Shown here in pieces: positions 23,872 through 64,000 of a DNA stretch of 64,000 bases (its first letter is position 1; the number at the start of each line of letters is the position of its first letter). The notes beneath the pieces were generated by a model. The model saw nothing but the letters and a program-made list of their open reading frames with translations, made no database searches and was not told the DNA's origin. Source of the stretch: a bacterium. Lineage in GTDB: Bacteria > RBG-13-61-14 > DATKZS01. Made by a program: the position numbers and the translations under genes. The stretch is from the NCBI GenBank assembly GCA_963674965.2, contig CAXXFL010000001.1:1248001-1312000 (forward strand), given 5' to 3'.

Positions 23872-25251
23872 ATGCATAAAGAAAAAGTCTGGAACAAGAT
23901 TCTAAGCGAGCTATCGCTCGAAATCGACCAAAACAACTTGACCAAGTTCCGTTCACTGCTTACCCTTGGCGACGTAAACCAGGAAAAGCTCATTATCCGA
24001 GCTTCCAACCGGTTCGTTTACGACTGGGTAAGAAAAAACTATCACAGCCAGATCGAGAACGCCGCTGGAGCGGCCCTTGGCAACAACGTTAAACTCCTTC
24101 TGGAGATCGACCGAAGCCCTGAGAAGATTGATAACGCCGCTCCTCTTTCGTCCGACTCCATTGCTTCCTCTTTCCCGGTCAAATCACCCGATTCTTCCTC
24201 GCGCTTGCCCCTTCCCAAGCATCCCATGCTTGTTCCCGAGATGACCTTCGAAAATTTCATCGTCGGTCCTTCCAACCAGTTCGCTCACGCCGCCTGCAAG
24301 GCCTTCTCCGAAAAGAACGCCAGAAACTACAACCCCATGTTCATCTATGGAGGAGTGGGCCTGGGCAAGACCCATCTTCTCAACGCGGTGGGCAACCGTA
24401 TGCATGATATTAACCCCTCCCTCAAGATCATTTCCATTCAGGCCGAGAGCTTTATCCGTGACATGATCGAGGCCATCCGCAAGGAAAAGATGGAGGAGTT
24501 CAGGAGCAAATACCGAAACCAGTGCGACGTTCTTTTAATGGACGACGTTTACATCCTGGCCGGCAAGGAGAGGACCCAGGAGGAGTTTTTTTATACCTTT
24601 AACGAACTGATCAAAAACGGCAAGAAGATTATCTTTACTTCCGACAAGATGCCTCGGGAGATGACTACACTGGAGGAAAGGCTGAAAAGCCGTTTCGAGA
24701 GCGGCATGATGGTGGATATCCAGCCTCCCGAGTTCGAGACCAGGCTGGCCATCATGAAGTACTTCGCCGAGGTCGAAAGGATGATACTTCCCGACGACGT
24801 TGCTTTCTTTATGGCCGACAAAATCCGCTCCAACATCAGAAAACTCAAAGGCTGCATGATAAGGCTCGCGGCCCTCAGTTCTCTTTCCGGTACTCCTATA
24901 ACTTTGGACTTGGCCAACGACATCATGATGGCCATCATCGAGGACGAGGATTCAAAGCTCACTTCAGAACTCATTATGAAAATCGTGGCCGATTACTTCA
25001 AGATCAAGGTATCCGATCTTAAATCTCCCAAGCGAAACAGAAAGTACACCGTGCCCAGGCAGATAGCCATGTATCTTTGCCGGCAGCTCTGCGATATGTC
25101 TTTTCCCGAGATCGGCCAGGCCTTCGGGGGAAGGGACCACTCGACCGTTATCCATTCCTGTAAGAAGATAGGCGTCGAGAAGAATACCGATCGCGAACTC
25201 GAAAGACATATCGATTGCCTTAAAAAGCAGCTTAAAATAAACCACTCGTAA
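23872..25251 (+). CDS. dnaA: Chromosomal replication initiator DnaA
   Basis: All four domains; YNPMFIYGGVGLGKTHLL, MDD, RLKSRF, PRQIAMYL, GGRDHSTVIH. Confidence 0.98.
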   Translation: MHKEKVWNKILSELSLEIDQNNLTKFRSLLTLGDVNQEKLIIRASNRFVYDWVRKNYHSQIENAAGAALGNNVKLLLEIDRSPEKIDNAAPLSSDSIASSFPVKSPDSSSRLPLPKHPMLVPEMTFENFIVGPSNQFAHAACKAFSEKNARNYNPMFIYGGVGLGKTHLLNAVGNRMHDINPSLKIISIQAESFIRDMIEAIRKEKMEEFRSKYRNQCDVLLMDDVYILAGKERTQEEFFYTFNELIKNGKKIIFTSDKMPREMTTLEERLKSRFESGMMVDIQPPEFETRLAIMKYFAEVERMILPDDVAFFMADKIRSNIRKLKGCMIRLAALSSLSGTPITLDLANDIMMAIIEDEDSKLTSELIMKIVADYFKIKVSDLKSPKRNRKYTVPRQIAMYLCRQLCDMSFPEIGQAFGGRDHSTVIHSCKKIGVEKNTDRELERHIDCLKKQLKINHS

Positions 25252-25597: not shown

Positions 25598-26707
25598 ATG
25601 GAACTTACTATCGAAAGGGACGCTTTTATAAAGATACTGGGAAAAGTACAAGGCATCGTGGAGAAAAGAAACGCCATGCCCATACTGAGCAATACGCTGC
25701 TTCGAGCCTCTGACCAGAGTCTCGAGATACTGGCCACGGACCTCGAGGCCACCGTTATCGACACCTGCCCGGTGGACCTGTCCGAGGAGGGTTCAGTAAC
25801 GCTTAACGCCAAGAAGCTTTTCGAGATAGTCAAGGAAATGCCTGATGGTCCATTGTTTTTAAAGTCCGATGACGAATATCACGTCGAGGTAAAAAGCGGC
25901 AAGGTAAGATACGAGATAATGGGCATGTCCAGCGACGATTACCCGAAAATTCCCGATCCCTCGGACTTTTCCTTTATCTCGGTCCCGGGTCCCTTGCTTT
26001 ACGAGATGATCCATAAAACCATCTACGCCACGGCCGGTGAGGAGGCCAGGTTTTCCCTTAACGGCGTTCTTTTCGAGAAGACCGAGGAAGGTGAAGGGGT
26101 CCGCATGGTGGCGACAGACGGGCACAGGCTGGCCAAAATCGAGCGCATGATCGAGGGAGCTGGTAACATAGCCGTCGAAAAGCAGGTAATCCTTCCCAGG
26201 AAGGGCATGTCCGAGTCCATGAAGCTTCTCGATGGGGTCGAGAACGAGGTGGGTCTGGCCATCAAGGAAAAACAGGCGGCCGTGAAAATAGGGGATACCG
26301 TGCTGATTATGAGGCTGGTTGACGGCAAGTTCCCCGATTACAGGAAAGTTATCATCGAGGGATGCGACCAGAAGGCCACGGCTTCCAAGGAAGAGCTTAT
26401 AAGGAATTTAAGAAGGGCGTCCCTCATGGTGGACGACAAGGCAAGGGCAGTTAAGTTCGAGTTCACGCCGGGAAACTTGAGACTCGAGAGCAAGAATATT
26501 AACGGAAGCTCATCAAGCGAACTCGATATAGATTACGATGGCGATAAGATGTCCATCGGTTTTAACGACAGGTATTTCGTGGACATTATGAACGCCACTA
26601 AAAGCGAGAAGATCGAAATAAACTTAAGGGACGAGCAGTCGCCGGCTCTCGTTACGATTCCGGACGAGGAAAATTACGTCTGCGTCATCATGCCCATGAG
26701 GCTGTGA
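25598..26707 (+). CDS. dnaN: DNA polymerase III beta sliding clamp
   Basis: ATDLE, VATDGHRL, RLVDGKFPDY, C-terminal IMPMRL; follows dnaA. Confidence 0.97.
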   Translation: MELTIERDAFIKILGKVQGIVEKRNAMPILSNTLLRASDQSLEILATDLEATVIDTCPVDLSEEGSVTLNAKKLFEIVKEMPDGPLFLKSDDEYHVEVKSGKVRYEIMGMSSDDYPKIPDPSDFSFISVPGPLLYEMIHKTIYATAGEEARFSLNGVLFEKTEEGEGVRMVATDGHRLAKIERMIEGAGNIAVEKQVILPRKGMSESMKLLDGVENEVGLAIKEKQAAVKIGDTVLIMRLVDGKFPDYRKVIIEGCDQKATASKEELIRNLRRASLMVDDKARAVKFEFTPGNLRLESKNINGSSSSELDIDYDGDKMSIGFNDRYFVDIMNATKSEKIEINLRDEQSPALVTIPDEENYVCVIMPMRL

Positions 26708-51663: not shown

Positions 51664-54600
51664 ATGTCGAAAAAGGACATGAGAAAAACCAAGGCCGAAC
51701 TGGTAAAGGAGTTGGAGGAACTCCGGGGGAAAGCCTCGCTTTCTTCGCCCCGTGATTTGGAAGATATCAAGTCGGACCGCAACGAGTTCCATCTAATGGC
51801 CAGGAAAATATTCGACAAATGCCGCGATCTTACGGGCGCCCGGTCCGGTTACGTGGCCTTGCTCAACGAGAGGGGAGACGAGAACGAGGTCATTTTCCTC
51901 GAGGCTGGCGGACTGCCGTGCAGCGTCTCGCCCGACCTGCCCATGCCTATCAGGGGCCTCAGGGCCCAAGCCTACGATCAAGGAAAGGTCGCCCTCGATA
52001 ACGACTTCATGAACGGCGAATGGGCCAAGCTCATGCCCGAGGGTCACGTTGACCTGGACAACGTTCTTTTCGCTCCCCTTAACGTACGCGGCCAAACCAG
52101 GGGCCTTATTGGCCTGGCCAACAAACCGGGCGGGTTCTCCGAACTTGACGCCAGGATTGCCGCCGCCATGGGCGATATTTGCGCCTCCGAGCTGGAAAAG
52201 CACGTCATTCGGGACGAGCTGGCCAGGAGCGAGGCGCTGTTCCGAGAAATGTTCCACGGCCACAGTTCGGTGAAACTGCTCATCGATCCGGAAACGGGCG
52301 AGTTAGTGGCGGCCAATGAGGCCGCCTGCAAATTCTACGGGTACGATGAGGACGTCTTCAAGTCCATGAATATTACACAGATCAACGTCCTACCCGCCCG
52401 GGAAGTATTCGAGAGGATGTCCGCCGCCATCAGCGGGGACGAGTCGAGGTTTTTCTTCCAGCATCGGCTGGCCTCGGGAGAGGTTCGCCACGTTGACGTC
52501 CATTCCTCACCCGTCAAGGCGCTGGGCAAAAAGCTTCTTTACTCGGTAGTTCACGACGTTACCGAAAAGAAGGAGGCGGAACGGGGAATTCGGGACCGCG
52601 AGGAAACTCTTCGCGCTCTGGTTGACGCCTCCCTCGATAAAATAATGCTCATGGACCTGGATGGAACGGCGCTGGCGGTTAACGACGCCTTTGCCAAAGG
52701 TTTCGGACTGGCCGTCAAGGACGTCCTCGGACGAAACGCCTTTGAACTTCTTCCGCCCGAGAACAGAGCGGGGCGAGAGGAAAAAGTCGCGGAGGTTATC
52801 AGGTCGGGCCGGCCGGTTCGTTTCGTGGATAAAAGAGGGGCCGCGGTCCTGGAAAATCACATTAACCCCGTGTTCGACGGGGAAGGCAACGTCGCTCGGC
52901 TGGCCGTTTACGGCCGGGATATTACCGAGCGGCTGGAGGCCGAACAGAAGCTGCGGGAAAGCGAGGCCAAATACCGGCTCATGGCCGATAACGTTTCCGA
53001 CCTGATCTGGGCCATGGACCTCGAGTTGAACCATACTTATATCAGTCCCTCCATCGAGAAGATGTCTGGCTTCACCGCCGAGGAAATCCTGCAAATGAAG
53101 CCCGCGGACTTTATGACCCCCGAGTCTCTGGAGAAGGTCGGTCATCTTTTCCTCCGGGAATTCGCCAAAGTCAAGGAGGACCCCGAGTCGGCCTCCGAGC
53201 CCACGACTTTCGAGCTTGTATATTATAAAAAGGACGGAAATCTTCTTCCCGTCGAGGTAAGCGCGCGTTTCCTGGTTGACGAAAAAGGGAATCCCACCGG
53301 GATTTTGGGGATCACGCGAGACATTTCCGAAAGGAAAAGGGCGGAGGAAAAAGTCCTCGAGAGCGAAAGAGAGCTTCAACTGACCCTCGACGCCACCACC
53401 GACGGCATATGGAAATGGAACTTTTTAACCCACGAGATGTTCTTCAGCAACAAGTACTATGCCATGCTCGGTTACGAGCCGGGAGAGTTCGAGCCCTCCT
53501 ACGAGAACTGGGCCGACCTGATACATCCCGACGACCTCGAGACGACCCTGGCCGTGGCCCGGGAATACCTCGAGACCAAGCCCGACTTTTACCGGAACGA
53601 GTTCAGGCTGAGGACCAAAAGCGGCGATTACCGATGGATCAGCGCCGAGGCCCGGGTGGTGGAAAGGGATGAGTCCGGAGGGGCCGTGAGGATGATCGGC
53701 CATCACCGGGACGTGACCGAGAGAAAACAAAATGAGCGGGCCCTCGAGTTGGCGGCCCGGGAATGGAGCCGGACCTTCGACGCCATTCCCGACTCGGTCA
53801 TGATCATCGACAACTCGTTCAATATTATCCGGGCCAACCGGGCGGCGGTAAGGCTGGCGGGTAACTCGCCGGACGACGTTTTGGGGAGGAAATGTTTCGC
53901 GGTCCTTCACGGAAGCGACGCTCCCCCATCCTTTTGTCCCCACGTCCGGGCGATCAAGGACGGCAAGTCCCACAGCGAGGAAGTATACGAGCCCAAGCTG
54001 GAAGGGCACTTTATCGTCAGCGCTTCCCCCATATTCGACGCCTCGGGCAAGCTGGACCGCGTGGTCCACGTCATGAGGGACGTCACCGAAAGGAAAAACC
54101 AGGAAAACAGGATCAGAGATCAGCACCAGTTCATGGAAAAAGTCTTCGACGCGGCCTCGGAGGGTATCTTCGTTCTCGATCAGGACGCCAGGTACGCGCT
54201 TATAAATCGGTCGTGGGAACAAATTTTCGGGTTCGCGAGAGGGGAATATATCGGGAAAAAAGCGGGAACAACCATTGGCGAGGAATACCGGGACGTGGTG
54301 GCCGAGGCCTTCGATAAAGCCTATAAGGGACAAAGAGAACGCTGCGAGTTCGTATTCAAGGGGAAAGGGGGTAAGGAAAAGATAATCGACCTTGGCCTGA
54401 GCCCGCTTATTTGGCATGAAGAGATGCACGTACTGGGCATGGCCCAGGATATAACCCAGAAGAAAAAAGCGGAACGGGAGCTGAAAAGAAGCCAGGCCGA
54501 GCTGTCCGCCATTCTTCATAACGCGCCGGTCCTGGTAATGCTCGTGGACCGGGAGCGGCGAGTGCTGAAAATCAACGGATACGCGAGCGACCAATCCGGA

Positions 54601-56703
54601 AATCCGCCGGAGAAGCTTATCGGCCTGCGGGGAGGCGAGGCCCTGAGATGCGTCCACCATCTTGACGACCCCGGGGGATGCGGCTATGGGGAGGCCTGTC
54701 GGGAATGCCGCGTAAGACGAGCGGTCATGGATACCTTCGAGACCGGCGAGGGCCGGGAGCGTATCGAGTGCAATTTTTCCTTTATCAAGGAGGGGGACCG
54801 CGAGTCCAGCGAGAAAACTCTCCTGGTTTCGACCGCCCTTCTCGAGGTGGGCGAGACGGAGGCCGCGCTGGTCTGTATCGAGGACGTGACCGATTTGAAG
54901 GAGGTGGAAAAAGCCCTCAGGACCCGGCTCGAGTACGAGCAGGCCCTGGGCGAATGCTCGAAGCTCCTTCTTTCCGAGACGGCGGATGAGGACCCCATCG
55001 AGGACGTCCTTTCAAATCTTCTTCAGACCACCGAGGTCGACCGCGTCTACCGCTTCGAAAACTTCGAGGACCCGGAAAAGGGAACTTGCATGAGGCAGAC
55101 CATCGAGGTCCTCGCGCCCGGCGTCGAGCCGGCCATGGGCCGAGCGCCCATGGAGGGGCTTCCCTATAAAGAAGGCTTCTCGCTATGGCGAAGAGAGCTC
55201 TCCCAGGGCATGCCCATCATGGGCCCGGTTTCCTCCTTCCCTCTCGAGGAAAGGCGAGCGCTCGAGCCAAGGGGAATACTTTCCATCCTCGTTCTGCCCA
55301 TCCAGATAAACGGGGAATGGGAAGGTTTTGTGGGCTTCGACGACGTCACCCGCGGGCGCGGCTGGAGCGAGGAGGACGTGAGATTGATGGAGACGGCCGT
55401 CGAGATGATCCAGTCCCATGAGGAAAGAAAGCGGGCGCGCCTGGGCCTTATCGAGTCCGAAAACCTGTTCCGGCGCCTTTTCGATAACGTGACGAGCGGA
55501 ATAATCATGACGGGCCCGGACGGTAAAATCCTGATGATAAATTCCCACGCCCTCTCCCTTTTGGGCCTCGATGAAGGCATAATCGGCAAGGACCCCGCCG
55601 AGACGGTCCCCGCCGCCGCGCCGCTTTTTTCGCGCCTCCACCTTGGACACCAGAACCGGGCGGAGGTGACCCTGGCCTCGGGCGACGAGCTTCTCCTGGG
55701 CTACACCAGCGTCGAGGTGGACCTGCCGGAGGGAAAGGGACTGATCACCCTCTTCAGGGACATCGGCCGTCTCATGCAGGCCGAGGACAGAAGAAGGCGC
55801 GCCGAGCAGCTCGCCCAGGTGGGAGAGCTGGCCGCCAGGCTGAGCCACGAGATCAAGAACCCCCTGGCCTCGATCATGGCGGGCCTGCAGCTTCTTGACG
55901 GCAACCTGTACCTCCGGTCGGATGACAACCTCGTGCTTCAGACCATTATCGAGGAGGTAAAAAACGTCAGCCACCTGGTGAGCGGCATCCTGGACGCGGC
56001 CCGCTTCGAGGTGGTAAATCCCGAGACGGTGGACCTCGCCACGCTGCTTAGAGACGCGGGGGATTTGTTCTTCAGCCTTTCCAGGAAAAAGGGCATAGAC
56101 GTCCGGGTCGAGGCCGAGACCTCGGGCTTGTCCGTTTTTCTTGACAGGAGGTCCTTTGGCAGGGCCATCGCAAACCTTGTCAACAACTCGATCGAGGCCA
56201 TTTTCACAAATGGAAGAATCGACGTCGTTTCCCGGCTCCTGAGTCCGGCTGAGAAGGGTCTCCTTTTTCCAGGCTTCCAGGGGGAAGTGGCCGAGATACG
56301 GGTGGCGGACGACGGGCCGGGCATTCCGGAGCATGAGTTGGAGAAGGTGTTCAGCCCCTTTTACACGACCAAGGAATCGGGCACGGGCCTGGGCCTGGCC
56401 GTGGCCCGCGACGTGGTCGAGTTCCACGGCGGGGTCATGCGAGCGGGCAACGCCGAGGGCGGAGGCGCCGTTTTCCAGATATATCTGCCGGCCGGCGAGC
56501 GCGCCGTATGCAGCGATATGGGAATATGCTCGGCCGAGGATTGCGACGCCTGTCCGACCAAAAAGTGCGGCATGACCCTGCTTTGCTGGTCCAATAAGGT
56601 CGAGGAGGCAAGGCTCGAGGGGTTCCGCTACCCGGAAAAATGTCCGGACTGCGCGGTGTTCAGGCAGGGAAACCTGTCGCATTTCTATAAACCGAGGGAC
56701 TGA
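51664..56703 (+). CDS. Cytoplasmic multi-sensor histidine kinase (GAF, many PAS, GAF, PAS, HisKA, HATPase, Cys-rich tail)
   Basis: Many (R)D(I/V)TERK PAS ends; H-box LSHEIKNPL; N-box, DDGPGI, FSPFYTTK, GTGLGL; no TM seen; ATG 51679 may be the true start. Confidence 0.92.
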   Translation: MSKKDMRKTKAELVKELEELRGKASLSSPRDLEDIKSDRNEFHLMARKIFDKCRDLTGARSGYVALLNERGDENEVIFLEAGGLPCSVSPDLPMPIRGLRAQAYDQGKVALDNDFMNGEWAKLMPEGHVDLDNVLFAPLNVRGQTRGLIGLANKPGGFSELDARIAAAMGDICASELEKHVIRDELARSEALFREMFHGHSSVKLLIDPETGELVAANEAACKFYGYDEDVFKSMNITQINVLPAREVFERMSAAISGDESRFFFQHRLASGEVRHVDVHSSPVKALGKKLLYSVVHDVTEKKEAERGIRDREETLRALVDASLDKIMLMDLDGTALAVNDAFAKGFGLAVKDVLGRNAFELLPPENRAGREEKVAEVIRSGRPVRFVDKRGAAVLENHINPVFDGEGNVARLAVYGRDITERLEAEQKLRESEAKYRLMADNVSDLIWAMDLELNHTYISPSIEKMSGFTAEEILQMKPADFMTPESLEKVGHLFLREFAKVKEDPESASEPTTFELVYYKKDGNLLPVEVSARFLVDEKGNPTGILGITRDISERKRAEEKVLESERELQLTLDATTDGIWKWNFLTHEMFFSNKYYAMLGYEPGEFEPSYENWADLIHPDDLETTLAVAREYLETKPDFYRNEFRLRTKSGDYRWISAEARVVERDESGGAVRMIGHHRDVTERKQNERALELAAREWSRTFDAIPDSVMIIDNSFNIIRANRAAVRLAGNSPDDVLGRKCFAVLHGSDAPPSFCPHVRAIKDGKSHSEEVYEPKLEGHFIVSASPIFDASGKLDRVVHVMRDVTERKNQENRIRDQHQFMEKVFDAASEGIFVLDQDARYALINRSWEQIFGFARGEYIGKKAGTTIGEEYRDVVAEAFDKAYKGQRERCEFVFKGKGGKEKIIDLGLSPLIWHEEMHVLGMAQDITQKKKAERELKRSQAELSAILHNAPVLVMLVDRERRVLKINGYASDQSGNPPEKLIGLRGGEALRCVHHLDDPGGCGYGEACRECRVRRAVMDTFETGEGRERIECNFSFIKEGDRESSEKTLLVSTALLEVGETEAALVCIEDVTDLKEVEKALRTRLEYEQALGECSKLLLSETADEDPIEDVLSNLLQTTEVDRVYRFENFEDPEKGTCMRQTIEVLAPGVEPAMGRAPMEGLPYKEGFSLWRRELSQGMPIMGPVSSFPLEERRALEPRGILSILVLPIQINGEWEGFVGFDDVTRGRGWSEEDVRLMETAVEMIQSHEERKRARLGLIESENLFRRLFDNVTSGIIMTGPDGKILMINSHALSLLGLDEGIIGKDPAETVPAAAPLFSRLHLGHQNRAEVTLASGDELLLGYTSVEVDLPEGKGLITLFRDIGRLMQAEDRRRRAEQLAQVGELAARLSHEIKNPLASIMAGLQLLDGNLYLRSDDNLVLQTIIEEVKNVSHLVSGILDAARFEVVNPETVDLATLLRDAGDLFFSLSRKKGIDVRVEAETSGLSVFLDRRSFGRAIANLVNNSIEAIFTNGRIDVVSRLLSPAEKGLLFPGFQGEVAEIRVADDGPGIPEHELEKVFSPFYTTKESGTGLGLAVARDVVEFHGGVMRAGNAEGGGAVFQIYLPAGERAVCSDMGICSAEDCDACPTKKCGMTLLCWSNKVEEARLEGFRYPEKCPDCAVFRQGNLSHFYKPRD

Positions 56704-58095
56704 ATGCAGGCAACCGTTTTAATCGTGGACGACAACGCCGAACTGGCGGGCTTTCTCGAAAGACTGCTCGCCGCCGAGGGCTTCGACGCGTCCTCCTCCA
56801 ACGACGCGGCGCAGGCCAGGAAAGACATGGCCCGCCTGTACCCCGACGCCGTCCTAATGGACATCAAGCTTCCCGACGCCAATGGCGTAGAACTTTTAAG
56901 CGAGATGAAAAAACTCTACCCCGAGACCCAGTTCATCATGATGACCGCCTTCGCCAGCGTGAAGACGGCCATTAAAAGCATCAAAATCGGGGCCTACGAT
57001 TACCTCTCCAAGCCGTTCGACTCGGGCGAAATGATATACCTTCTAAACAACGCGCTCCAGGAAAAGGCCATGAGGGAAGAGCTGGCCCTGCTTCGTTCCG
57101 AGCGCGCGGCGCCCTCATCCAAGTCCGGCGTCCTCGAGTATCCGAGCTCGGTCATGAAAACCACCATGGCCATGTGCGAAAAAATCGCGCCCGGCAAGGG
57201 CAACGTGCTGCTTACGGGCGAGAGCGGGGTGGGCAAAAATTACCTGGCGGGCGTCATCCATACCCTCTCGAGCCGGGTGAAAGGGCCCTTCTTCGATATT
57301 AACTGCGCATCTCTCGCGCCCTCCCTCATCGAGTCGGAGCTCTTCGGCCACGAGCCCGGGGCCTTTACCGGCGCCAGGGGAAGGAGAAGGGGACTGATCG
57401 AGCTGGCCCATAACGGGACCCTTTTTCTCGACGAGATTGGCGACATGCCAGTCGAGCTGCAGGCCAAGCTGCTTTCCTTCCTTGACACGCACAAGCTTCG
57501 AAGGCTGGGAGGCGAGAAAGTCGTCGAGGTCGACGTAAGGATTATCGCCGCCACCAACCGGGACCTTAAAAAACTCATCGGCGAGGGACGCTTCCGGGAG
57601 GACCTTTTTTATCGTCTGAACGTCGTGTCCATTGAAATCCCGCCGCTGCGCGCCCGCAAGGAGGACATACCCCTTCTCGTGGAGGAGATATGCCGGAGGA
57701 TCGCCTATGACATGGGACTTTCCCGGACCCCCCGGCCTTCACGCTCGGTCCTTAATAAACTGAAAGCCCACTCCTGGCCGGGAAACGTAAGGGAACTGAG
57801 AAACGCCCTGGAGCGGGCCATCATGCTCGCTCCCGACAAGACCGAGATTGCCGACCTCAGGCTGGAAGAAGGTCCCGGCGGCCACGCGACCGGCCCGGCC
57901 GGGGGCGACGCGATCTACGAGGTACGCCTTCCTCCAGAGGGAGTGGACCTCAAAGCCGTTAACAGGGACGTGTCACGGGCCCTGATCGAGGAAGCCCTGC
58001 GCCGCGCCGAGACCAAAAAGGAAGCGGCCGACCTGTTGGGCGTGACCAAGGACTCCCTGGCCCATTCGATCAAGACGCTGAAGATCAAGGCGTGA
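56704..58095 (+). CDS. Sigma-54-dependent NtrC-family response regulator (REC-AAA+-HTH)
   Basis: VDD, MDIKLPD, KP; GESGVGK, ESELFGHEPGAFTGA, LFLDEIG, WPGNVREL, AADLLG. Confidence 0.95.
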   Translation: MQATVLIVDDNAELAGFLERLLAAEGFDASSSNDAAQARKDMARLYPDAVLMDIKLPDANGVELLSEMKKLYPETQFIMMTAFASVKTAIKSIKIGAYDYLSKPFDSGEMIYLLNNALQEKAMREELALLRSERAAPSSKSGVLEYPSSVMKTTMAMCEKIAPGKGNVLLTGESGVGKNYLAGVIHTLSSRVKGPFFDINCASLAPSLIESELFGHEPGAFTGARGRRRGLIELAHNGTLFLDEIGDMPVELQAKLLSFLDTHKLRRLGGEKVVEVDVRIIAATNRDLKKLIGEGRFREDLFYRLNVVSIEIPPLRARKEDIPLLVEEICRRIAYDMGLSRTPRPSRSVLNKLKAHSWPGNVRELRNALERAIMLAPDKTEIADLRLEEGPGGHATGPAGGDAIYEVRLPPEGVDLKAVNRDVSRALIEEALRRAETKKEAADLLGVTKDSLAHSIKTLKIKA

Positions 58096-58217
58096 TTCTT
58101 ACCGCAAAGCGTGATTTTCACGCGCCGCCATTTTCTCTTTGCATAACCTTCAAATCCCCAATGATATTTGGAATTATCCTCGGGTCTGGATAGGCCGAGC
58201 GCGTGAAAAGCACGCGC
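58090..58217. promoter_or_regulatory. Candidate enhancer (UAS) palindromes GCGTG-N5-CACGC
   Basis: GCGTGATTTTCACGC 58109-23, GCGTGAAAAGCACGC 58201-15, degenerate copy 58090-105. Confidence 0.6.
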
Positions 58218-58314
58218 CGGCGAACCCTTGCCTCCATGGCCGGCGATTAAACGATTACCAATTTTTCCTTTATATTGCGGCGGTTATAAAAAGCTCGATG
58301 GTCCTTGCCCTTTA

Positions 58315-58330
58315 TGGCACGCCGCGTGCT
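58315..58330 (+). promoter_or_regulatory. Sigma-54 (-24/-12) promoter
   Basis: TGGCACGCCGCGTGCT has exact GG-N10-GC spacing and a TGGCACG -24 box; ends 37 bp before ATG 58368. Confidence 0.75.
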
Positions 58331-58367
58331 TATTAGGTGAATAATCGCTTCCGGCAAAGGCAAGGAC

Positions 58368-59048
58368 ATGATTATTCTAATCGTTGAAGACAATTTAAAC
58401 CTGGCGACGTTTACCTCGCGCAACATCATGAAGGAGAAGCCTTCATGGAAGGTCCTGGTCACGGGCTCGTGCTTCGAGGCCCGGAACGTCACGGACCATA
58501 TCACGCCGGATATAGCCCTGATAGACCTTAGCCTGCCGGACGGAAACGGTCTCGATCTTTTGTTCGAGCTTAGGATCAAGTGCCAGAACATGCCCGCCAT
58601 ACTTACCAGCGCCTCGGTCTCGAAGAAATTAACCGACGAGGTAAACAGCCTGGGCGGATACATGGTGTTGGAAAAGCCCTTCGACTTCCGGGACCTGGTG
58701 GCCGTGCTCGAGGACGCCGGAGGGAGGACCGGCCAAAGGAGCGTGGACGCGGAGGACCTGGAATCGCGGCGGCGGGAGGAAAAAGCCGACGGGGACTTGA
58801 GCCCGTATTCGCCCTGGACCTATTCCCCCAAAAGCGGGCTTAACTATCACCAGATGCTGAACCGCCTTTCGGGCCTGCTCGCCGGTATCCGGGCCTTCGA
58901 GGCCGAAGTCTGCGCCGCGGCGGGAGACGAGCGGGCCGTCCGCGAGGCGGCGGGCGAATACGTGGACAGGCTCTGCCGGATCGTCGGCGACATGACCCGG
59001 ATGGTCAATAGCGCCCGGGCGGCCGAGCCGGGAAAGGGCCGGCAATGA
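58368..59048 (+). CDS. Receiver-domain protein with C-terminal HisKA/DHp-like helices
   Basis: LIVED, LIDLSLPDGNG, TS, EKPF; tail YHQMLNRLSGLLAG...VDRLCRIV. Confidence 0.8.
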   Translation: MIILIVEDNLNLATFTSRNIMKEKPSWKVLVTGSCFEARNVTDHITPDIALIDLSLPDGNGLDLLFELRIKCQNMPAILTSASVSKKLTDEVNSLGGYMVLEKPFDFRDLVAVLEDAGGRTGQRSVDAEDLESRRREEKADGDLSPYSPWTYSPKSGLNYHQMLNRLSGLLAGIRAFEAEVCAAAGDERAVREAAGEYVDRLCRIVGDMTRMVNSARAAEPGKGRQ

Positions 59049-59791
59049 GCAAGGAGCTGGAAATACTGTTCGTTGACGACGACCCCGACGTGAGCTGGTC
59101 CTTGTGCCGGCTGCTCACGCGCTCCGGCTTCTCGGTCATAACCTGCGGGGACGGGGCCGAGGCCATACCCATCCTGGAGGAAAAAAACTTCGACGTGCTT
59201 ATTACCGACGTCCAGATGCCCCAGGTAAACGGGCTGGCCCTCCTCGAGTGGGTCAGGCAAAATCGGCCCGCCACCAAGGTAGTGGTGATCACGGCCTATG
59301 GCTCGCCCACGGTGAAGCACCTGAGCATGCGGAAGGGGGCCCTTCTTTACCTCGAGAAGCCTCTCGATCCCGATCTTTTGATCGAGGTCCTTCGCGAGTC
59401 GGAGAAGGAGGAGACCTTTTACGGGAACGTGCATCGGATCGATCTTTTCGATTACGTTCAGCTTTTAATCCTTACCCGCAGCAAGGCGGTTCTGGAAATC
59501 CATTCCCGAAACGGGAGGATGGGATTGCTTTTTTTTCATGGAGGCGAGGCCGTGCACGCCGAAACGGAGGCCCTGCGGGGCGAAGAGGCCTTCAACAAGC
59601 TCCTGGCCCTCGAGGGAGGAAGCTTTAACACGCTGCCCTGGCGCGAGCCCCTGGAGCGGACCATCCAGCGTGGAGGCGAGTCCCTTCTCATGGAGGCGGC
59701 CAGGATCAAGGACGAGTCCTCCCAGGAGGAGGCGCGGGGCGAGGAAAACGCGTGGGCGGAAGCGGGACTGGAGGAATGGGGAGAGGAATAA
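59045..59791 (+). CDS. Response regulator, REC plus DUF4388-like domain
   Basis: FVDDD, ITDVQMP, TAYG, EKP; then G....IDLFDYVQL...G.LFF.GG..VHA...GEEAF...SLLMEAAR..DE. Confidence 0.85.
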   Translation: MSKELEILFVDDDPDVSWSLCRLLTRSGFSVITCGDGAEAIPILEEKNFDVLITDVQMPQVNGLALLEWVRQNRPATKVVVITAYGSPTVKHLSMRKGALLYLEKPLDPDLLIEVLRESEKEETFYGNVHRIDLFDYVQLLILTRSKAVLEIHSRNGRMGLLFFHGGEAVHAETEALRGEEAFNKLLALEGGSFNTLPWREPLERTIQRGGESLLMEAARIKDESSQEEARGEENAWAEAGLEEWGEE

Positions 59792-59809
59792 ATCCCCCGG
59801 GGAGGAAAG

Positions 59810-60289
59810 GTGAAAGGAATGGAAATAAACAAGGGCAAAGACGACGTGAAACAAATACTGGCTTCGCTTATCGATGCGTCCGGCGCCATGACCGCCCTTC
59901 TGGTGACCAAGCAGGGAAGCATCGTCTCGGACGCGGGCGATAAAAGCTACCTTAACATCACGGCCATGGCCGCCTTAATCGCGGGAATGTTCTCCGCCAC
60001 CAGGGAGGTGGCCAGGCTGGTGGGCGAAACCGAGTTTTCCATCCTTCTTCAGCAGGGCAAGAAAAGACATATACATATCTCGCTGATCACCGACGAGATC
60101 ATGATGGTGATAGTTTTCGAGGACTACAACCGAATCGGCCAGGTCAGGCACGAGGCCAGGAAAGCGAGCGAGCGCCTTGGCGCCTCGCTCGCTCCTGGCC
60201 GGGCCGAGCTCATGTCGGCCAAGGACATTTCCATGCCCGAGTTCAAGGAGTACGCCCTTAACCTGATCGACCGCATTTTTCAGGGGTAA
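59810..60289 (+). CDS. mglB: MglB-type roadblock/LC7 protein (MglA GAP homologue)
   Basis: ALLV..G, AALIAG.FSAT...ARLVGE.EFS.L.QG, G.VR, C-terminal ..IDRIF helix; directly before mglA. Confidence 0.85.
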   Translation: MKGMEINKGKDDVKQILASLIDASGAMTALLVTKQGSIVSDAGDKSYLNITAMAALIAGMFSATREVARLVGETEFSILLQQGKKRHIHISLITDEIMMVIVFEDYNRIGQVRHEARKASERLGASLAPGRAELMSAKDISMPEFKEYALNLIDRIFQG

Positions 60290-60300
60290 AGGCCGGCAAG

Positions 60301-60882
60301 ATGCCATATATCAACTACCAGGAAAAAGAGTTCAACTTCAAGATCGTGTATTACGGTCCCGGCATGAGCGGCAAGACGACGAACCTGGTTTACATACACA
60401 GGTCGCTCGACCCGGACCGCAAGGGCGAGCTGGTGATCCTGGACACGGAGGAGGAAAGGACCCTGTTCTTCGATTTCTTTCCCCTCGACCTGGGCGAGAT
60501 AGAGGGCTTCAACGTCAGGTTCAACATGTACACGGTCCCCGGCCAGGTCATGTACGAGGCCAGCAGGAAGCTCATCCTGGAAGGATCGGACGGCGTCATC
60601 TTCGTGGCCGACTCCCGCCCCGAGCGTTATGAGGCCAACATCGAGCTGTATCGGATGATGATCGCCAACCTCGAGTCCTACGGGCACGACCCCAAGACTT
60701 TTCCCACCGTGCTCCAGTACAACAAAAGGGACATGCCCGATCCCATTCCCGTCGGGTCCATCGAGAGGGACCTGGGACTTAACGGCATACCGGTTTTCGA
60801 GTCCGTCGCCACCAAGGGCGTCGGCGTAATGGACACCATCCGGAGAACGAGCCAGATGGTGATCGAGAAATTCCACCTATAA
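60301..60882 (+). CDS. mglA: MglA-type small Ras-like GTPase
   Basis: KIVYYGPGMSGKTTNL, ERTLFFDF, YTVPGQ, DGVIFVADS, QYNKRD, VAT.G.GV. Confidence 0.93.
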   Translation: MPYINYQEKEFNFKIVYYGPGMSGKTTNLVYIHRSLDPDRKGELVILDTEEERTLFFDFFPLDLGEIEGFNVRFNMYTVPGQVMYEASRKLILEGSDGVIFVADSRPERYEANIELYRMMIANLESYGHDPKTFPTVLQYNKRDMPDPIPVGSIERDLGLNGIPVFESVATKGVGVMDTIRRTSQMVIEKFHL

Positions 60883-60898
60883 GGACGCGGGACCCAAA

Positions 60899-61651
60899 AT
60901 GGCGCTAAGAGGAAGCCTGGAAGACATGGACGTGTTCGAGCTTGTCCAGTTTCCCCATCAGGGAAGAAAAAGCGGCGAGTTGATACTCGTGGGCTCCGAG
61001 CACGAGGCGAGACTCTATTACCAAAAAGGAAAGCTCGTTCACGCCAGATACCTCGAGACAAAGGGACTCGATGTCCTGGTCGAGGTCCTGGGATGGTCGG
61101 AGGGAGTGTTCGAGTTCAGGCCCAACGAGGACTCGCCCGAAACCTCCATTGAGATGGACCTTCACCGGGCCGTTATGCAGGCGTTGAAAATCAAAGACGA
61201 GAAAACCATGACCAATGAGGCCGGGGAAAACGATAGCGAAAATTTGGTCCCTGAAAAACCCGATACCGAGACGGGCATGGATATCGCGGCGGACGATACG
61301 GCTAAATGGGCCAATTTCAAAGAGGCGGCGCAAAAAGAGAAGCCCATCCTCAGCGCGGTCCTGGTAAACGAGTCGGGACAATGCCTGGCCAGGGCGGGTA
61401 GAAATAAATCCGACAACGGCCTGGAAACGGAGAAGGTCAAGGATTTTCTTTTGCAATACGCGCTCGATCATCCCCGGCCGGGAATGAAGCGGATCATCAC
61501 CGAGGACGCGGGAGGAACGGTGGTCATGATCCCCATTTCACGCGGGATGTTTCTCGTGGCCCTGGCGGGCAAGGACGCTTCCCTTGGGGCGGCGTCGCTA
61601 AGCGCCAACCGGTTGGCCGAGTTCGCGGAGCGAAAAGGGGAGCCAAGATGA
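60899..61651 (+). CDS. DUF4388 domain plus divergent roadblock-like C-terminal domain
   Basis: LRGSLEDM...ELVQ...KSG.L...G.LVHA...W.EG.FEF; C-terminal AVLVNESG..LA.AG...A.K.ASLG. Confidence 0.75.
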   Translation: MALRGSLEDMDVFELVQFPHQGRKSGELILVGSEHEARLYYQKGKLVHARYLETKGLDVLVEVLGWSEGVFEFRPNEDSPETSIEMDLHRAVMQALKIKDEKTMTNEAGENDSENLVPEKPDTETGMDIAADDTAKWANFKEAAQKEKPILSAVLVNESGQCLARAGRNKSDNGLETEKVKDFLLQYALDHPRPGMKRIITEDAGGTVVMIPISRGMFLVALAGKDASLGAASLSANRLAEFAERKGEPR

Positions 61652-62025
61652 CGCAACCGGCCGAGAAAATTGCCGCCGCGGCCCGGATTCTTGAGAGTTC
61701 CATCGAGGAGGAAGACCACGTCATGTACGCCTGCCTGATGGACGAGACGGGCAAGAGGGTGGCGGAAAAAGAAGGGGCGAAAACCGTCGAGGAGGCCCGA
61801 TCGATCAGGTCCAGCCTGCACGGTCTGGCCCAAGGCTATCCTCGCGGGGGCCTGGCCAGGGCCTTCATCGAGGACGAGATGGGCACGATCGCCCTGTATT
61901 GCGTCGCCGGCGATCTGTATCTGGCGGTCGCGGCCGAGCCCGGATCGCCTCTCGGAGCCGTCTCGATGACGGCCGGCCGCGTCGCGGAGCGGATAAAAAG
62001 CTCCCTCCAAACGGGACTCGAGTGA
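61648..62025 (+). CDS. Divergent roadblock/LC7-like protein
   Basis: ACLMDETG, FIEDEMG.IAL, LAVAAE..SPLG; resembles the C-terminal domain of the preceding gene; ATGA overlap. Confidence 0.65.
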   Translation: MTQPAEKIAAAARILESSIEEEDHVMYACLMDETGKRVAEKEGAKTVEEARSIRSSLHGLAQGYPRGGLARAFIEDEMGTIALYCVAGDLYLAVAAEPGSPLGAVSMTAGRVAERIKSSLQTGLE

Positions 62026-62029
62026 AGCT

Positions 62030-63082
62030 ATGAACACGGAACTGGAAAATAGTTACAAGCCCTTGTTGATTAAAACGGAGCCTCGCCCGGAAATGACCTT
62101 CGAGAGTTTCGTCACCTGCCGGGCCAACGAGTTTCCGGCCGAGGTGGCCAAGACCCTGGCCGAGGGACACACCCCCGCCTACAACCCGCTTTTTATTTAC
62201 AGCGACGTTGGACTGGGCAAGACCCACCTCCTTTACTCGATCGTCAATGAGGTCAACCGGATAGGCGAGGCTTCCATCGCCATATTCAACGCCGTCGACC
62301 TCGAGGCCGAGTTGGAGAGGGCGGACCGAATAGGCCGGCGGGCGGAGCTTCGGGATTGGCTCATTAAAAAGGACGTCCTTCTTATAGACGACGTCCAGTT
62401 CTGCGAGTCCAGCGAGTCCTTCCAAAAGGAGTTGTTCGCCATAATCAGCGGCATGACCTCGCTGAACAAGAGGGTGGCCATAACCTGCGACGTTCCTCCC
62501 ACCCGGCTCAGGGGCATCGAGAAACGGCTCATCTCCAGGCTGGGGGGAGGAGTTATCGTGAGCTTGCAAATGGCGGACCTGAACGCTCGGATCGAGATTC
62601 TGAGAAGGACCGCCGCCGAGGCCCCCATCGACGAGGACGTTTACAAATACCTGGCCGAGCGCATCGACGACAACGTGCGAAGGCTAAAGGCCGCCGTTTA
62701 CCAGCTTCTGGTCCATCACCGGGAGACGGGAGTGGAGATAAACATCGAGCTGACTCGGGCCATAATACCCATGCCCGAGGACCTGGCTCATGGACCCGCT
62801 CGGGAGGACGAGGCCCGAGGAGCGTCGGGAAAGCGGTCCGGCTCGGAACGGGAAACCTCGGCCTCGGGGATCGACCGGTTCAAGAAAATGCTCCAGAGCG
62901 CTGAAAACGAAAGGGAGCAGGCCCTGGCCCTGCAGATAGCCATAGGCGAACGCATAAGGCAGCTTCGAGGCAAGGAAGAAAACCGGCAGACCCTGGAAAA
63001 ATTAAATAACGCCCTCAGCCTTCTTCGGGCGGGAGAGCTTAAGGCGGCCGTCGAGTTTATGGCCGAGATAGGCGGGGATTGA
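62030..63082 (+). CDS. DnaA-like AAA+ ATPase (domain III only) with unrecognised C-terminal helical region
   Basis: PEMTFESF, YNPLFIYSDVGLGKTHLL, LLIDDVQF, TCD, RLISRL, NVRRL; no domain I and no domain IV signature. Confidence 0.88.
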   Translation: MNTELENSYKPLLIKTEPRPEMTFESFVTCRANEFPAEVAKTLAEGHTPAYNPLFIYSDVGLGKTHLLYSIVNEVNRIGEASIAIFNAVDLEAELERADRIGRRAELRDWLIKKDVLLIDDVQFCESSESFQKELFAIISGMTSLNKRVAITCDVPPTRLRGIEKRLISRLGGGVIVSLQMADLNARIEILRRTAAEAPIDEDVYKYLAERIDDNVRRLKAAVYQLLVHHRETGVEINIELTRAIIPMPEDLAHGPAREDEARGASGKRSGSERETSASGIDRFKKMLQSAENEREQALALQIAIGERIRQLRGKEENRQTLEKLNNALSLLRAGELKAAVEFMAEIGGD

Positions 63083-63249
63083 GGCGTGGAAGAATGATTC
63101 CCACCATCGCGAACGAATTCCGCGGCCGGGTCGAGAGTCCTCCCCTGGACCCGGCGGCGATAACCCATAGAAAAAAGGACGCCCTGAATATAGGTAAGTC
63201 AAACGGATCAAACAACGCAATTAACGGCAATTAGAAAGGAGAAAGAAAA

Positions 63250-63600
63250 ATGGCAAGCAAAGCGAACGGAATCATCAAGGAATTGAGCGGCACGGACGGC
63301 GTTCATGAGGTCCTGGTCGTGGGACGCGACGGTTTCGTAATCGACCACGTGGGCGACATGGACGCGGACGGAGTTGGCGCGGTTGTGTCCACCGCCATCG
63401 GCGCCATCGAGGCCATGGGAAGGGACACGGAGCAGGGAAACCTGTTCGAGATCATGGCCGAGTACAACGAGGGGACCATAATAGCCGCGCCCGTGGGCAG
63501 GGACGCCGTGTTGGGCATGGTCGCCAGCTCGAGCGCCAATCTTGGCGGCATACGCCACGCGGCCAAAAAGGCCATACGTGACCTGGAAAGGGCCCTGTAG
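63250..63600 (+). CDS. Roadblock/LC7 protein
   Basis: GV..VLVVGRDGFVI, EY..G.II.A, ANLG.IR. Confidence 0.88.
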   Translation: MASKANGIIKELSGTDGVHEVLVVGRDGFVIDHVGDMDADGVGAVVSTAIGAIEAMGRDTEQGNLFEIMAEYNEGTIIAAPVGRDAVLGMVASSSANLGGIRHAAKKAIRDLERAL

Positions 63601-63627
63601 GGCGGGGCCGGGAAAAGGAGAGATGAA

Positions 63628-64000
63628 ATGGCGGAAAAAGTAGACGTTAAGGCGGTCGAGGCGATCCTTTACGGGCTCTACAAGGCCCTTCACAAACTGG
63701 CGGGGGCCAGCGCCCCGGCGGTAATGCGCCAGGCGGCGCCGGACATGCTCGAGGAACTGGGCAAGCTGGGGGTGGACTTCTCCTGCGTCGACGACATCGA
63801 CAAGCTTCAGAGCAAGCTGGGAGACACCGTGACCAACACCGGGCTGTGCGACAAGATCGAGTTCTCGAAGAACGGCGACGACCTGACGGCCAAGATACAC
63901 GGATGCTCATTTTACGGCCTGACCAGTCAGCTCAAGTCCGAGGGCATCGAGCCTTTTGGCTGCCCTTTCGCCGCTCTTACCGTGGCCCTGGCCGAGAAGA
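63628..64000 (+). CDS. V4R/MetOD1-like protein, truncated by the window edge (absent from the ORF track)
   Basis: AGGAG then ATG 63628; open to the end: MAEKVDVKAVEAILYGLYKAL...AKIHGCSF...FGCPFAALTVA. Confidence 0.65.
   Translation, partial: MAEKVDVKAVEAILYGLYKALHKLAGASAPAVMRQAAPDMLEELGKLGVDFSCVDDIDKLQSKLGDTVTNTGLCDKIEFSKNGDDLTAKIHGCSFYGLTSQLKSEGIEPFGCPFAALTVALAEK

Follow-up and report, generated by a model that had tools for sequence, protein, structure and literature searches.

The stretch of DNA analysed here (hereafter, the window) comprises 64,000 nucleotides of a bacterial genome (GTDB lineage RBG-13-61-14; assembly GCA_963674965.2, contig CAXXFL010000001.1) and carries, at positions 62,030 to 63,082, a gene for an ATPase of 350 amino acids (aa) that resembles the replication initiator DnaA. 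This protein is an AAA+ ATPase of the DnaA/Hda group in a new architecture and in a new functional setting: a DnaA-type core is joined to a C-terminal helical module of its own, and the gene is part of a signalling cassette. Taking all the evidence together, it is rather likely that the protein acts as an ATP-driven oligomerising switch or scaffold of a PATAN/Roadblock signalling module. The gene and the main parts of its product are as follows:

62030..63082, + strand: DnaA-like AAA+ protein, an intact open reading frame (ORF) of 350 aa with an ATG start
62090..62767, + strand: AAA+ core and lid (residues 21-246), with a two-helix insert between strands 2 and 3
62858..63070, + strand: conserved four-helix tail (residues 277-347), the signature of the family

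The single significant Pfam domain of the 350-aa protein is Bac_DnaA (PF00308; residues 21-177, 123.5 bits, E 1.2e-35), which is accompanied by weaker generic AAA+ matches. Among NCBIfam models, the top rank corresponds to DnaA itself (TIGR00362; 196.3 bits over residues 15-246, below the cut-off of 343.9); Hda (TIGR03420) obtains 78.2 bits and NF038214 obtains 43 bits, both of them also below their cut-offs (194.8 and 200, respectively). Residues 89-328 of T. maritima DnaA (2z4r) are matched with 199 bits, and the identity to the DnaA of its own genome is 31% over residues 11-246.

A first-pass annotation, made from the letters of the window, had described the protein as a DnaA paralogue reduced to the AAA+ core, and its residue-level reading is borne out by an alignment with E. 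coli DnaA: (i) the Walker A motif, SDVGLGKT, has a Ser at the position of G172 and keeps K178/T179; (ii) Walker B (D235/D236), the sensor I residue D269, R281, R285 and the sensor II residue R334 are retained; and (iii) the position of V211 is occupied by Glu and those of K243 and R245 by Ser. In the numbering of the 350-aa protein, the Walker A Lys is Lys64 and the arginine finger is Arg170. The protein begins about 20 residues ahead of domain III and, in agreement with the alignment, Pfam gives no match in it for domain I (PF11638) or domain IV (PF08299), so that the reported absence of both domains stands. The motif PEMTFE.F is indeed common to the paralogue and to the DnaA of the same genome. 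The N-terminal beta-clamp-binding motif of Hda has the consensus QLxLxL, of which the E. coli example was read from the sequence; compared with E. coli Hda, no such motif is present at the N-terminus of the 350-aa protein, as had been noted, nor in the consensus of its family. As for the helical tail of about 100 aa that had been proposed, a tail unrelated to domain IV does exist, and it is more exactly described as a linker (residues 258-276) followed by four helices (residues 277-347).

The AlphaFold2 model of the protein, for which a 25-sequence alignment was used as input, has a mean predicted local distance difference test (pLDDT) value of 84.4. Its best matches among solved structures are domain III of B. 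subtilis DnaA (8bv3; template modelling (TM) score 0.87, root-mean-square deviation (rmsd) 2.6) and of T. maritima DnaA (2z4r; TM 0.88, rmsd 2.1), with Hda structures at TM 0.67-0.69 (0.67 for 3bos). Initiator-type ATPases are marked by a two-helix insert between strands 2 and 3. The 350-aa protein keeps it: in the model, strands 83-87 and 116-120 enclose two helices (88-100 and 104-112) at the site of this initiator-specific insert. The linker has pLDDT values under 50, and the tail modelled alone reaches 80.2. A Foldseek search of the tail-only model against the PDB gave no significant match (best E 1.1, generic four-helix bundles). With VIA-align, the best Z was 7.6, and the rows with Z 5.8-6.5 include the C-terminal helical domains of RFC, MgsA and ORC; as values under about 13 are common for helical bundles, this likeness would be a weak lead.

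The protein does not stand alone. A protein search recovered 58 relatives (P0002-P0059) of 303-439 aa, with 79-98% query coverage and 194-448 bits, none of which (0/58) contains domain IV (PF08299); canonical DnaAs appear, in the same search, only from 148 bits downward, with 59-70% coverage. An alignment of 25 members displays a conserved AAA+ core, a variable linker and a strongly conserved C-terminal stretch of about 70 residues, the tail columns being invariant or near-invariant both in this set and in a set of 18 sequences. Most members also carry, at the N-terminus, an extension of about 45 residues; it is missing from the window protein and was found by a motif search in 55 of 108 members. 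When 1.84 billion representative proteins were searched with the tail profile, 110 proteins were obtained at E<=1e-3 (73 at E<=1e-10), and the tail proved to be conserved across phyla. Among 161 proteins inspected, the match to the family profile runs from the beginning of the core through to the tail in 108. With about 110 clusters at 50% identity, this family of DnaA-like ATPases is rare, and the window protein is not a one-off remnant.

The catalytic residues are widely conserved within these 108 members: the Walker A Lys and the Walker B Asp-Asp are each kept in 104, the sensor II Arg in 98, the arginine finger in 90 and the sensor I Asp in 81. The first position of Walker A varies across the whole family (G 70, A 22, S 14) and, hence, the Ser of the window protein is normal variation. 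Judging from these residues, the nucleotide site and the arginine finger of this DnaA-derived AAA+ protein are under selection. The positions that in DnaA contact single-stranded DNA tell a different story: that of V211 is mostly acidic or Gln (E 64, Q 15, D 10) and that of R245 is frequently Asp (31) or Glu (24); at the position of K243, Arg (46) and Asn (20) are common, and the Ser of the window protein is not the family rule. Five further residues, namely E204, F206, W288, R227 and T246, show little or no variation in 24 DnaAs and are changed in 21 family members, in which the insert region has a net charge of -1.1, as against +0.9 in the DnaAs. At the position of E204, the 108 members have mostly A (64), V (12) or S (11), and E in only 3. 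With domain IV gone and the ssDNA-contact positions mostly acidic, the family lacks both of DnaA's DNA-binding functions. The earlier proposal that the window protein can probably bind ATP and oligomerise but not bind oriC is thus supported by Walker A, the arginine finger, the missing domain IV and the acidic positions, and it applies to the family as a whole.

To place the family, the AAA+ domain was used for a careful maximum-likelihood tree (54 rows, 230 columns), without DnaC and IstB. One side of a branch with 98/97 support holds the 21 family rows together with two nested 280-aa proteins of genome G073. Opposite them stand all 24 DnaAs, with this genome and four other carriers represented, a group of tandem-domain proteins, and E. 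coli Hda together with two Hda-like proteins. The same separation (support 97) results from a quick tree to which DnaC and IstB were added, both of which fall on long separate branches. The family is thus separate in the phylogeny against DnaA, Hda, DnaC and IstB that had been suggested, and the clustering with Hda that would have spoken against the first reading is seen in neither tree. Separated in this way from the DnaAs of its hosts and from Hda, the family is neither a recent copy of the hosts' dnaA nor an Hda. A root placed on DnaC/IstB turned the family into a basal grade, a result that was not trusted because the root lies on very long branches.

Three groups of related proteins deserve mention beside the tree. 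The tandem-domain proteins P0060 and P0065 (also P0061 and P0075) have 481-593 aa, with a tandem pair of DnaA-type ATPase domains and without domain IV; PF00308 matches two stretches in each of P0060 and P0065, the group forms its own 100/100 clade, and one of the sources is a Gemmatimonadetes metagenome-assembled genome. Tail-less DnaA-like proteins of 280-287 aa occur in L129 and L131 (genome G073) and in L150:2048-2911 (genome G080); the G073 pair, being nested in the family clade, may be an offshoot of the family. Finally, L126 (genome G015) and L127 (genome G062) encode 245-aa Hda-like proteins with an N-terminal clamp motif of the QL.LP type, in genomes of the Desulfomonilaceae class; they group with E. 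coli Hda with 89/83 support, subject to a long-branch warning.

With respect to DnaA, the family shares the AAA+ fold of domain III with its two-helix insert, as well as the Walker A and B motifs, the sensor I Asp, the equivalents of R281/R285 and the sensor II Arg. It differs from DnaA in that (i) domains I, II and IV are missing; (ii) the positions of V211 and R245 are acidic, E204 is lost and the positions of W288 and R227 are changed; (iii) there is a conserved four-helix module at the C-terminus; and (iv) the gene is located in a signalling cassette, not beside dnaN, and is present in one to three copies per genome. Like Hda/HdaA, the paralogue is a DnaA-related AAA+ protein with an arginine finger and without domains I and IV. 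Unlike Hda, it remains below the TIGR03420 cut-off, has no N-terminal clamp motif, is 100-200 aa longer owing to its tail, and stands apart on the tree both from the Hda of E. coli and from the Hda-like proteins found in G015 and G062, two genomes in which the family coexists with such proteins.

The genuine replication genes of this genome lie elsewhere in the window:

23872..25251, + strand: genuine dnaA, 459 aa, a comparison gene outside the cassette
25598..26707: dnaN, which follows dnaA

The genuine dnaA is thus 36.8 kb upstream of the DnaA-like gene, in accordance with the 37 kb first given, and the minimum of the cumulative GC skew is found near 26 kb, beside dnaA-dnaN, as expected for a replication origin. 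In the whole 6.5-Mb genome (97.6% complete), there are two PF00308 matches, dnaA and the paralogue, and no protein reaches the TIGR03420 cut-off for Hda, the matches being DnaA, the paralogue and one frame with 32.8 bits. Since DnaA and the paralogue are on different contigs in G005, G014, G062 and G073, the 37-kb distance observed in the window is not conserved; in G062, over 1.1 Mb separate the paralogue from the end of its contig. Regarding distribution, the tail is found in 2 of the 13 genomes of the window's phylum in the collection and in 16 of the 122 genomes (all of them of 4.7-10 Mb) of the class that holds the Desulfomonilaceae loci, with one to three family copies per genome in the latter.

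The surroundings of the DnaA-like gene are those of a signalling cassette, which, together with the regulatory genes ahead of it, is composed of the following features:

51664..56703, + strand: 1679-aa multi-PAS/GAF histidine kinase (PAS, GAF, HisKA and HATPase_c matches), ending where the activator gene starts
56704..58095, + strand: NtrC-type sigma-54 activator with receiver, AAA+ and HTH_8 (PF00158 E 2e-65, PF00072 E 1.8e-25)
58315..58329, + strand: sigma-54-type promoter-like motif, TGGCAC-N5-GTGC, placed 54 nt upstream of the cassette's first gene, with one mismatch to the pattern
58368..59048, + strand: receiver-domain protein, 226 aa (PF00072 E 8e-15)
59045..59791, + strand: response-regulator receiver + PATAN protein (PF00072 E 7.5e-26, PF14332 E 5.6e-13)
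59810..60289, + strand: Roadblock/LC7 protein, MglB-like, here Roadblock-159 (PF03259 E 5.1e-8; NF052242 MglB 58.5 bits, below the cut-off of 200)
60301..60882, + strand: MglA-like small GTPase (Pfam Arf 23.9 bits; GPGMSGKT, TVPGQ and NKRD motifs)
60899..61651, + strand: PATAN (DUF4388) + Roadblock-like protein (PF14332 E 4.8e-19)
61648..62025, + strand: 125-aa ORF corresponding to the Roadblock-like, C-terminal half of the PATAN protein, of which it is a stand-alone copy
63250..63600, + strand: second Roadblock/LC7 protein, 116 aa, here Roadblock-116 (PF03259 E 1.1e-15)
63628..64000, + strand: start of a 155-aa Cys-containing ORF, which continues 93 bases past the window (full length taken from L083, at L083:2274-2738)

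The C-terminal half of the PATAN + Roadblock-like protein resembles Roadblock weakly (hhalign 57%, E 1e-4), and four to five Roadblock-type domains can be counted in the cassette. The 125-aa ORF matches that C-terminal half over 106 columns (hhalign probability 99.7%, E 5.6e-27) and is restricted to this genome and to G005, its sole orthologue being in L106. Only in these two genomes does the DnaA-like protein lack the N-terminal extension, and both have the 125-aa ORF directly upstream, a coincidence that may reflect a swap of interaction modules. Of the four MglA-like GTPases of this genome (G000), only one is located next to the DnaA-like gene. In the abstract of PMC3000849, threonine in place of the usual aspartate is given as the hallmark of MglA.

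To assess how constant this arrangement is, the cassette proteins were mapped onto 16 loci with a family member, from 13 genomes. The PATAN + Roadblock-like gene is directly upstream of the DnaA-like gene in all 16, both Roadblock genes (Roadblock-159 and Roadblock-116) are likewise present in 16/16, and the receiver-PATAN gene in 15/16. Orthologues of the GTPase (63-77% identical) occur in 14 loci, in one of them split. The 155-aa ORF, which after the GTPase is the best-conserved cassette member, has orthologues with 61-86% identity in 14/16 loci, and is missing together with the GTPase in L100 and L102. It is found in 17 of the 122 genomes of the above-mentioned class, 16 of which are shared with the tail, and also in six further loci from which the DnaA-like gene is absent. 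For its function, an Atlas search provided leads only (RdxA_C, MJ0207 and ATC_hydrolase-like clusters, 0.91-0.95).

The tail links the ATPase to its neighbours in another way. Seven tail-bearing proteins of 350-375 aa match the family profile in the tail only and have no AAA+ domain; their bodies, as read from the sequences, consist of PATAN followed by a Roadblock-like domain, with Pfam recognising DUF4388 in five of the seven and Robl_LC7 in three. The same tail therefore ends either an ATPase or a PATAN-Roadblock protein, as would be expected if it served as an adaptor within a single network. Pfam gave nothing significant for the tail, the N-terminal extension of the relatives, the 125-aa ORF or the 155-aa ORF (best E 0.049), and an Atlas search with the tail gave no usable match.

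Regarding expression, a sigma-54-type -24/-12 motif between the activator gene and the first cassette gene was found in 8 of 11 loci, which suggests that the upstream NtrC-type activator may drive the cassette; window-wide, matches to the sigma-54 pattern are not above chance (32 found vs 45 expected). Scans of positions 56000-64000 for sigma-70 promoters and terminators gave results at chance level, with no terminator-like site on the + strand inside the cassette. In metatranscriptome X4, near-identical contigs cover only 63359-63621 and 63700-63875, and the DnaA-like gene is matched only by a piece of 50 bases that differs at 5 of them; as contigs from an RNA library, they do not establish transcription.

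Past the window (L142:665-3332), there follow genes for a 335-aa protein with a weak DUF4388 match, a 162-aa ankyrin-repeat protein and a 373-aa leucine-rich-repeat protein; ankyrin-repeat genes are also located after the cassette in L003 and L004. A defence system was considered for the cassette and rejected on the PADLOC result, according to which 11 of the 12 cassette proteins have no match and the twelfth has generic ankyrin models only. Similarly, no transposase or helicase gene was seen adjoining the DnaA-like gene, whose neighbours are signalling genes; in the absence of an adjacent transposase, a role as mobile-element helper was also rejected.

From these data, the following mechanism can be proposed. 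The 350-aa protein would bind ATP and assemble, through its arginine finger, into an open DnaA-like oligomer that would not be seated on DNA. Such an oligomer would then work as a nucleotide-dependent switch or scaffold for a PATAN/Roadblock platform, with the helical tail as the adaptor that inserts it into the PATAN/Roadblock network. Cell polarity, or some other localisation process under GTPase control, is the probable output of the cassette. Between the two functional options that had initially been put forward, that of a repurposed signalling ATPase is favoured by the fixed position in the cassette, the shared tail and the presence of one to three copies; the other, poisoning of DnaA filaments, is left without specific support, given that linkage to dnaA is not conserved, Hda-like proteins coexist with the family and E204, W288 and R227 are changed.

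In its more elaborate form, this second option depicts the protein as a signal-gated DnaA antagonist which co-assembles with ATP-DnaA via the AAA+ interface and either caps the filament or inserts its arginine finger into the ATP site of DnaA, much as Hda puts its own arginine finger into that site. The kinase/GTPase cassette would, in this case, be tied to replication initiation. Several of the features described above speak for such an antagonist: among AAA+ proteins, the paralogue is nearest to DnaA (196 bits for TIGR00362 vs 78 bits for Hda; 31% identity), its AAA+ faces are DnaA-like with the finger and R281 kept, its genome has no Hda and its gene is 36.8 kb from dnaA. But that vicinity is not conserved, the two genes being on different contigs in four other genomes; a family with one to three copies per genome does not branch from the DnaAs of its hosts; Hda-like proteins with a clamp motif coexist with it in G015 and G062, while the paralogue itself has no such motif; and the changes at E204, F206, W288, R227 and T246 affect, among others, the interface region of DnaA. 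We therefore hold the antagonist to be quite unlikely. Similarly unlikely is the broader proposal that the cassette is a sensory brake or accelerator on replication, in which signals from the PAS/GAF kinase, via the PATAN/Roadblock/MglA-like module, release or activate the ATPase, which then joins DnaA filaments and blocks or resets initiation. If true, a genome without Hda would have, in this cassette, a functional analogue of Hda under signal control.

A different possibility is that the protein is not itself a scaffold but an assembly or remodelling ATPase that, in the manner of DnaC/IstB, uses ATP to load, assemble or dismantle a Roadblock/PATAN complex. The paralogue does belong, with the DnaC/IstB loaders, to the broad initiator/loader group of AAA+ proteins, and the IstB domain PF01695 matches it with 32.6 bits, above the cut-off of 24.1. 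Roadblock-type domains, which act as dimers, are present in the cassette four to five times, and the gene always adjoins the PATAN + Roadblock-like gene. Nevertheless, the core is far nearer to DnaA (123.5 bits for PF00308 vs 32.6 bits) and DnaC and IstB are distant on the tree, for which reason remodelling is considered unlikely, even if no tested feature separates it from the scaffold reading. As for a decaying or non-functional remnant of a duplicated dnaA, the lack of domains I and IV and the Ser in place of the first Walker A glycine could be adduced in its favour. The pseudogene-like decay that this would entail, also contemplated in the first-pass annotation, is contradicted by the intact frame, the confident fold and the catalytic residues kept in 108 relatives; moreover, the Walker A variation is family-wide, the tail is conserved across phyla and the family is not nested in host DnaA clades, so that a remnant is extremely improbable.

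The preferred reading, that of an oligomerising switch or scaffold, also has points to be set against it. All the relatives come from uncultured genomes or metagenomes, and the partners of the 350-aa protein are inferred from sequence and locus context. In PMC5319796, E204Q is described as lowering the ATPase of DnaA; since E204 is rarely Glu in the family, ATP turnover may be slow or partner-dependent. The GTPase is absent from 2 of the 16 loci, making a direct GTPase-effector relation doubtful. Furthermore, L149 has the whole cassette without the DnaA-like gene, the PATAN gene being followed at once by the 155-aa ORF, so that the module can do without this gene, which is an add-on. In G062, the parts of the cassette are dispersed over three loci and, in a Bradymonadales contig, the PATAN-Roadblock gene is just downstream of the family member. 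The cassette is thus modular, and the DnaA-like gene, itself an add-on, is always accompanied by the PATAN + Roadblock-like gene. A complex prediction for the PATAN + Roadblock-like protein (14 rows) with the DnaA-like protein (18 rows) gave 0.00 in both runs, made without controls, the mark being 0.32; it is neutral on binding.

The cassette can be compared with the MglA/MglB polarity module, with which it has in common an MglA-like GTPase (bearing TVPGQ) as well as proteins of the Roadblock/MglB-like and PATAN kinds. In PMC4316618, where prokaryotic small GTPases are surveyed, PATAN genes are described in the vicinity of some mglA genes of groups 1 and 5; DnaA has 0 occurrences in the main text of that survey. 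What is different here is the participation of an initiator-type ATPase, which is not described as a part of the MglA/MglB-PATAN module in the literature searched. In full-text searches combining DnaA with MglA/Roadblock or with PATAN/DUF4388, and in searches for DnaA paralogues, no description of the DnaA-like family was found, nor is there a curated NCBIfam or Pfam model covering the family or its tail. In their sources, the members are named "DnaA/Hda family protein", "ATP-binding protein" or "chromosomal replication initiator protein DnaA"; the last label misleads origin calling and dnaA copy counts.

To our knowledge, nearly all DnaA-type ATPases described so far serve in DNA replication or in its control (DnaA, Hda), and more distant relatives act in helicase loading and transposition. 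A fixed place in a cassette of two-component, small GTPase, Roadblock and PATAN genes would be a non-replicative use of the initiator fold. The family would then add a new component to MglA/MglB/PATAN systems, and it offers a testable case of an ATP-dependent filament-former that may have been rewired into bacterial polarity-type signalling.

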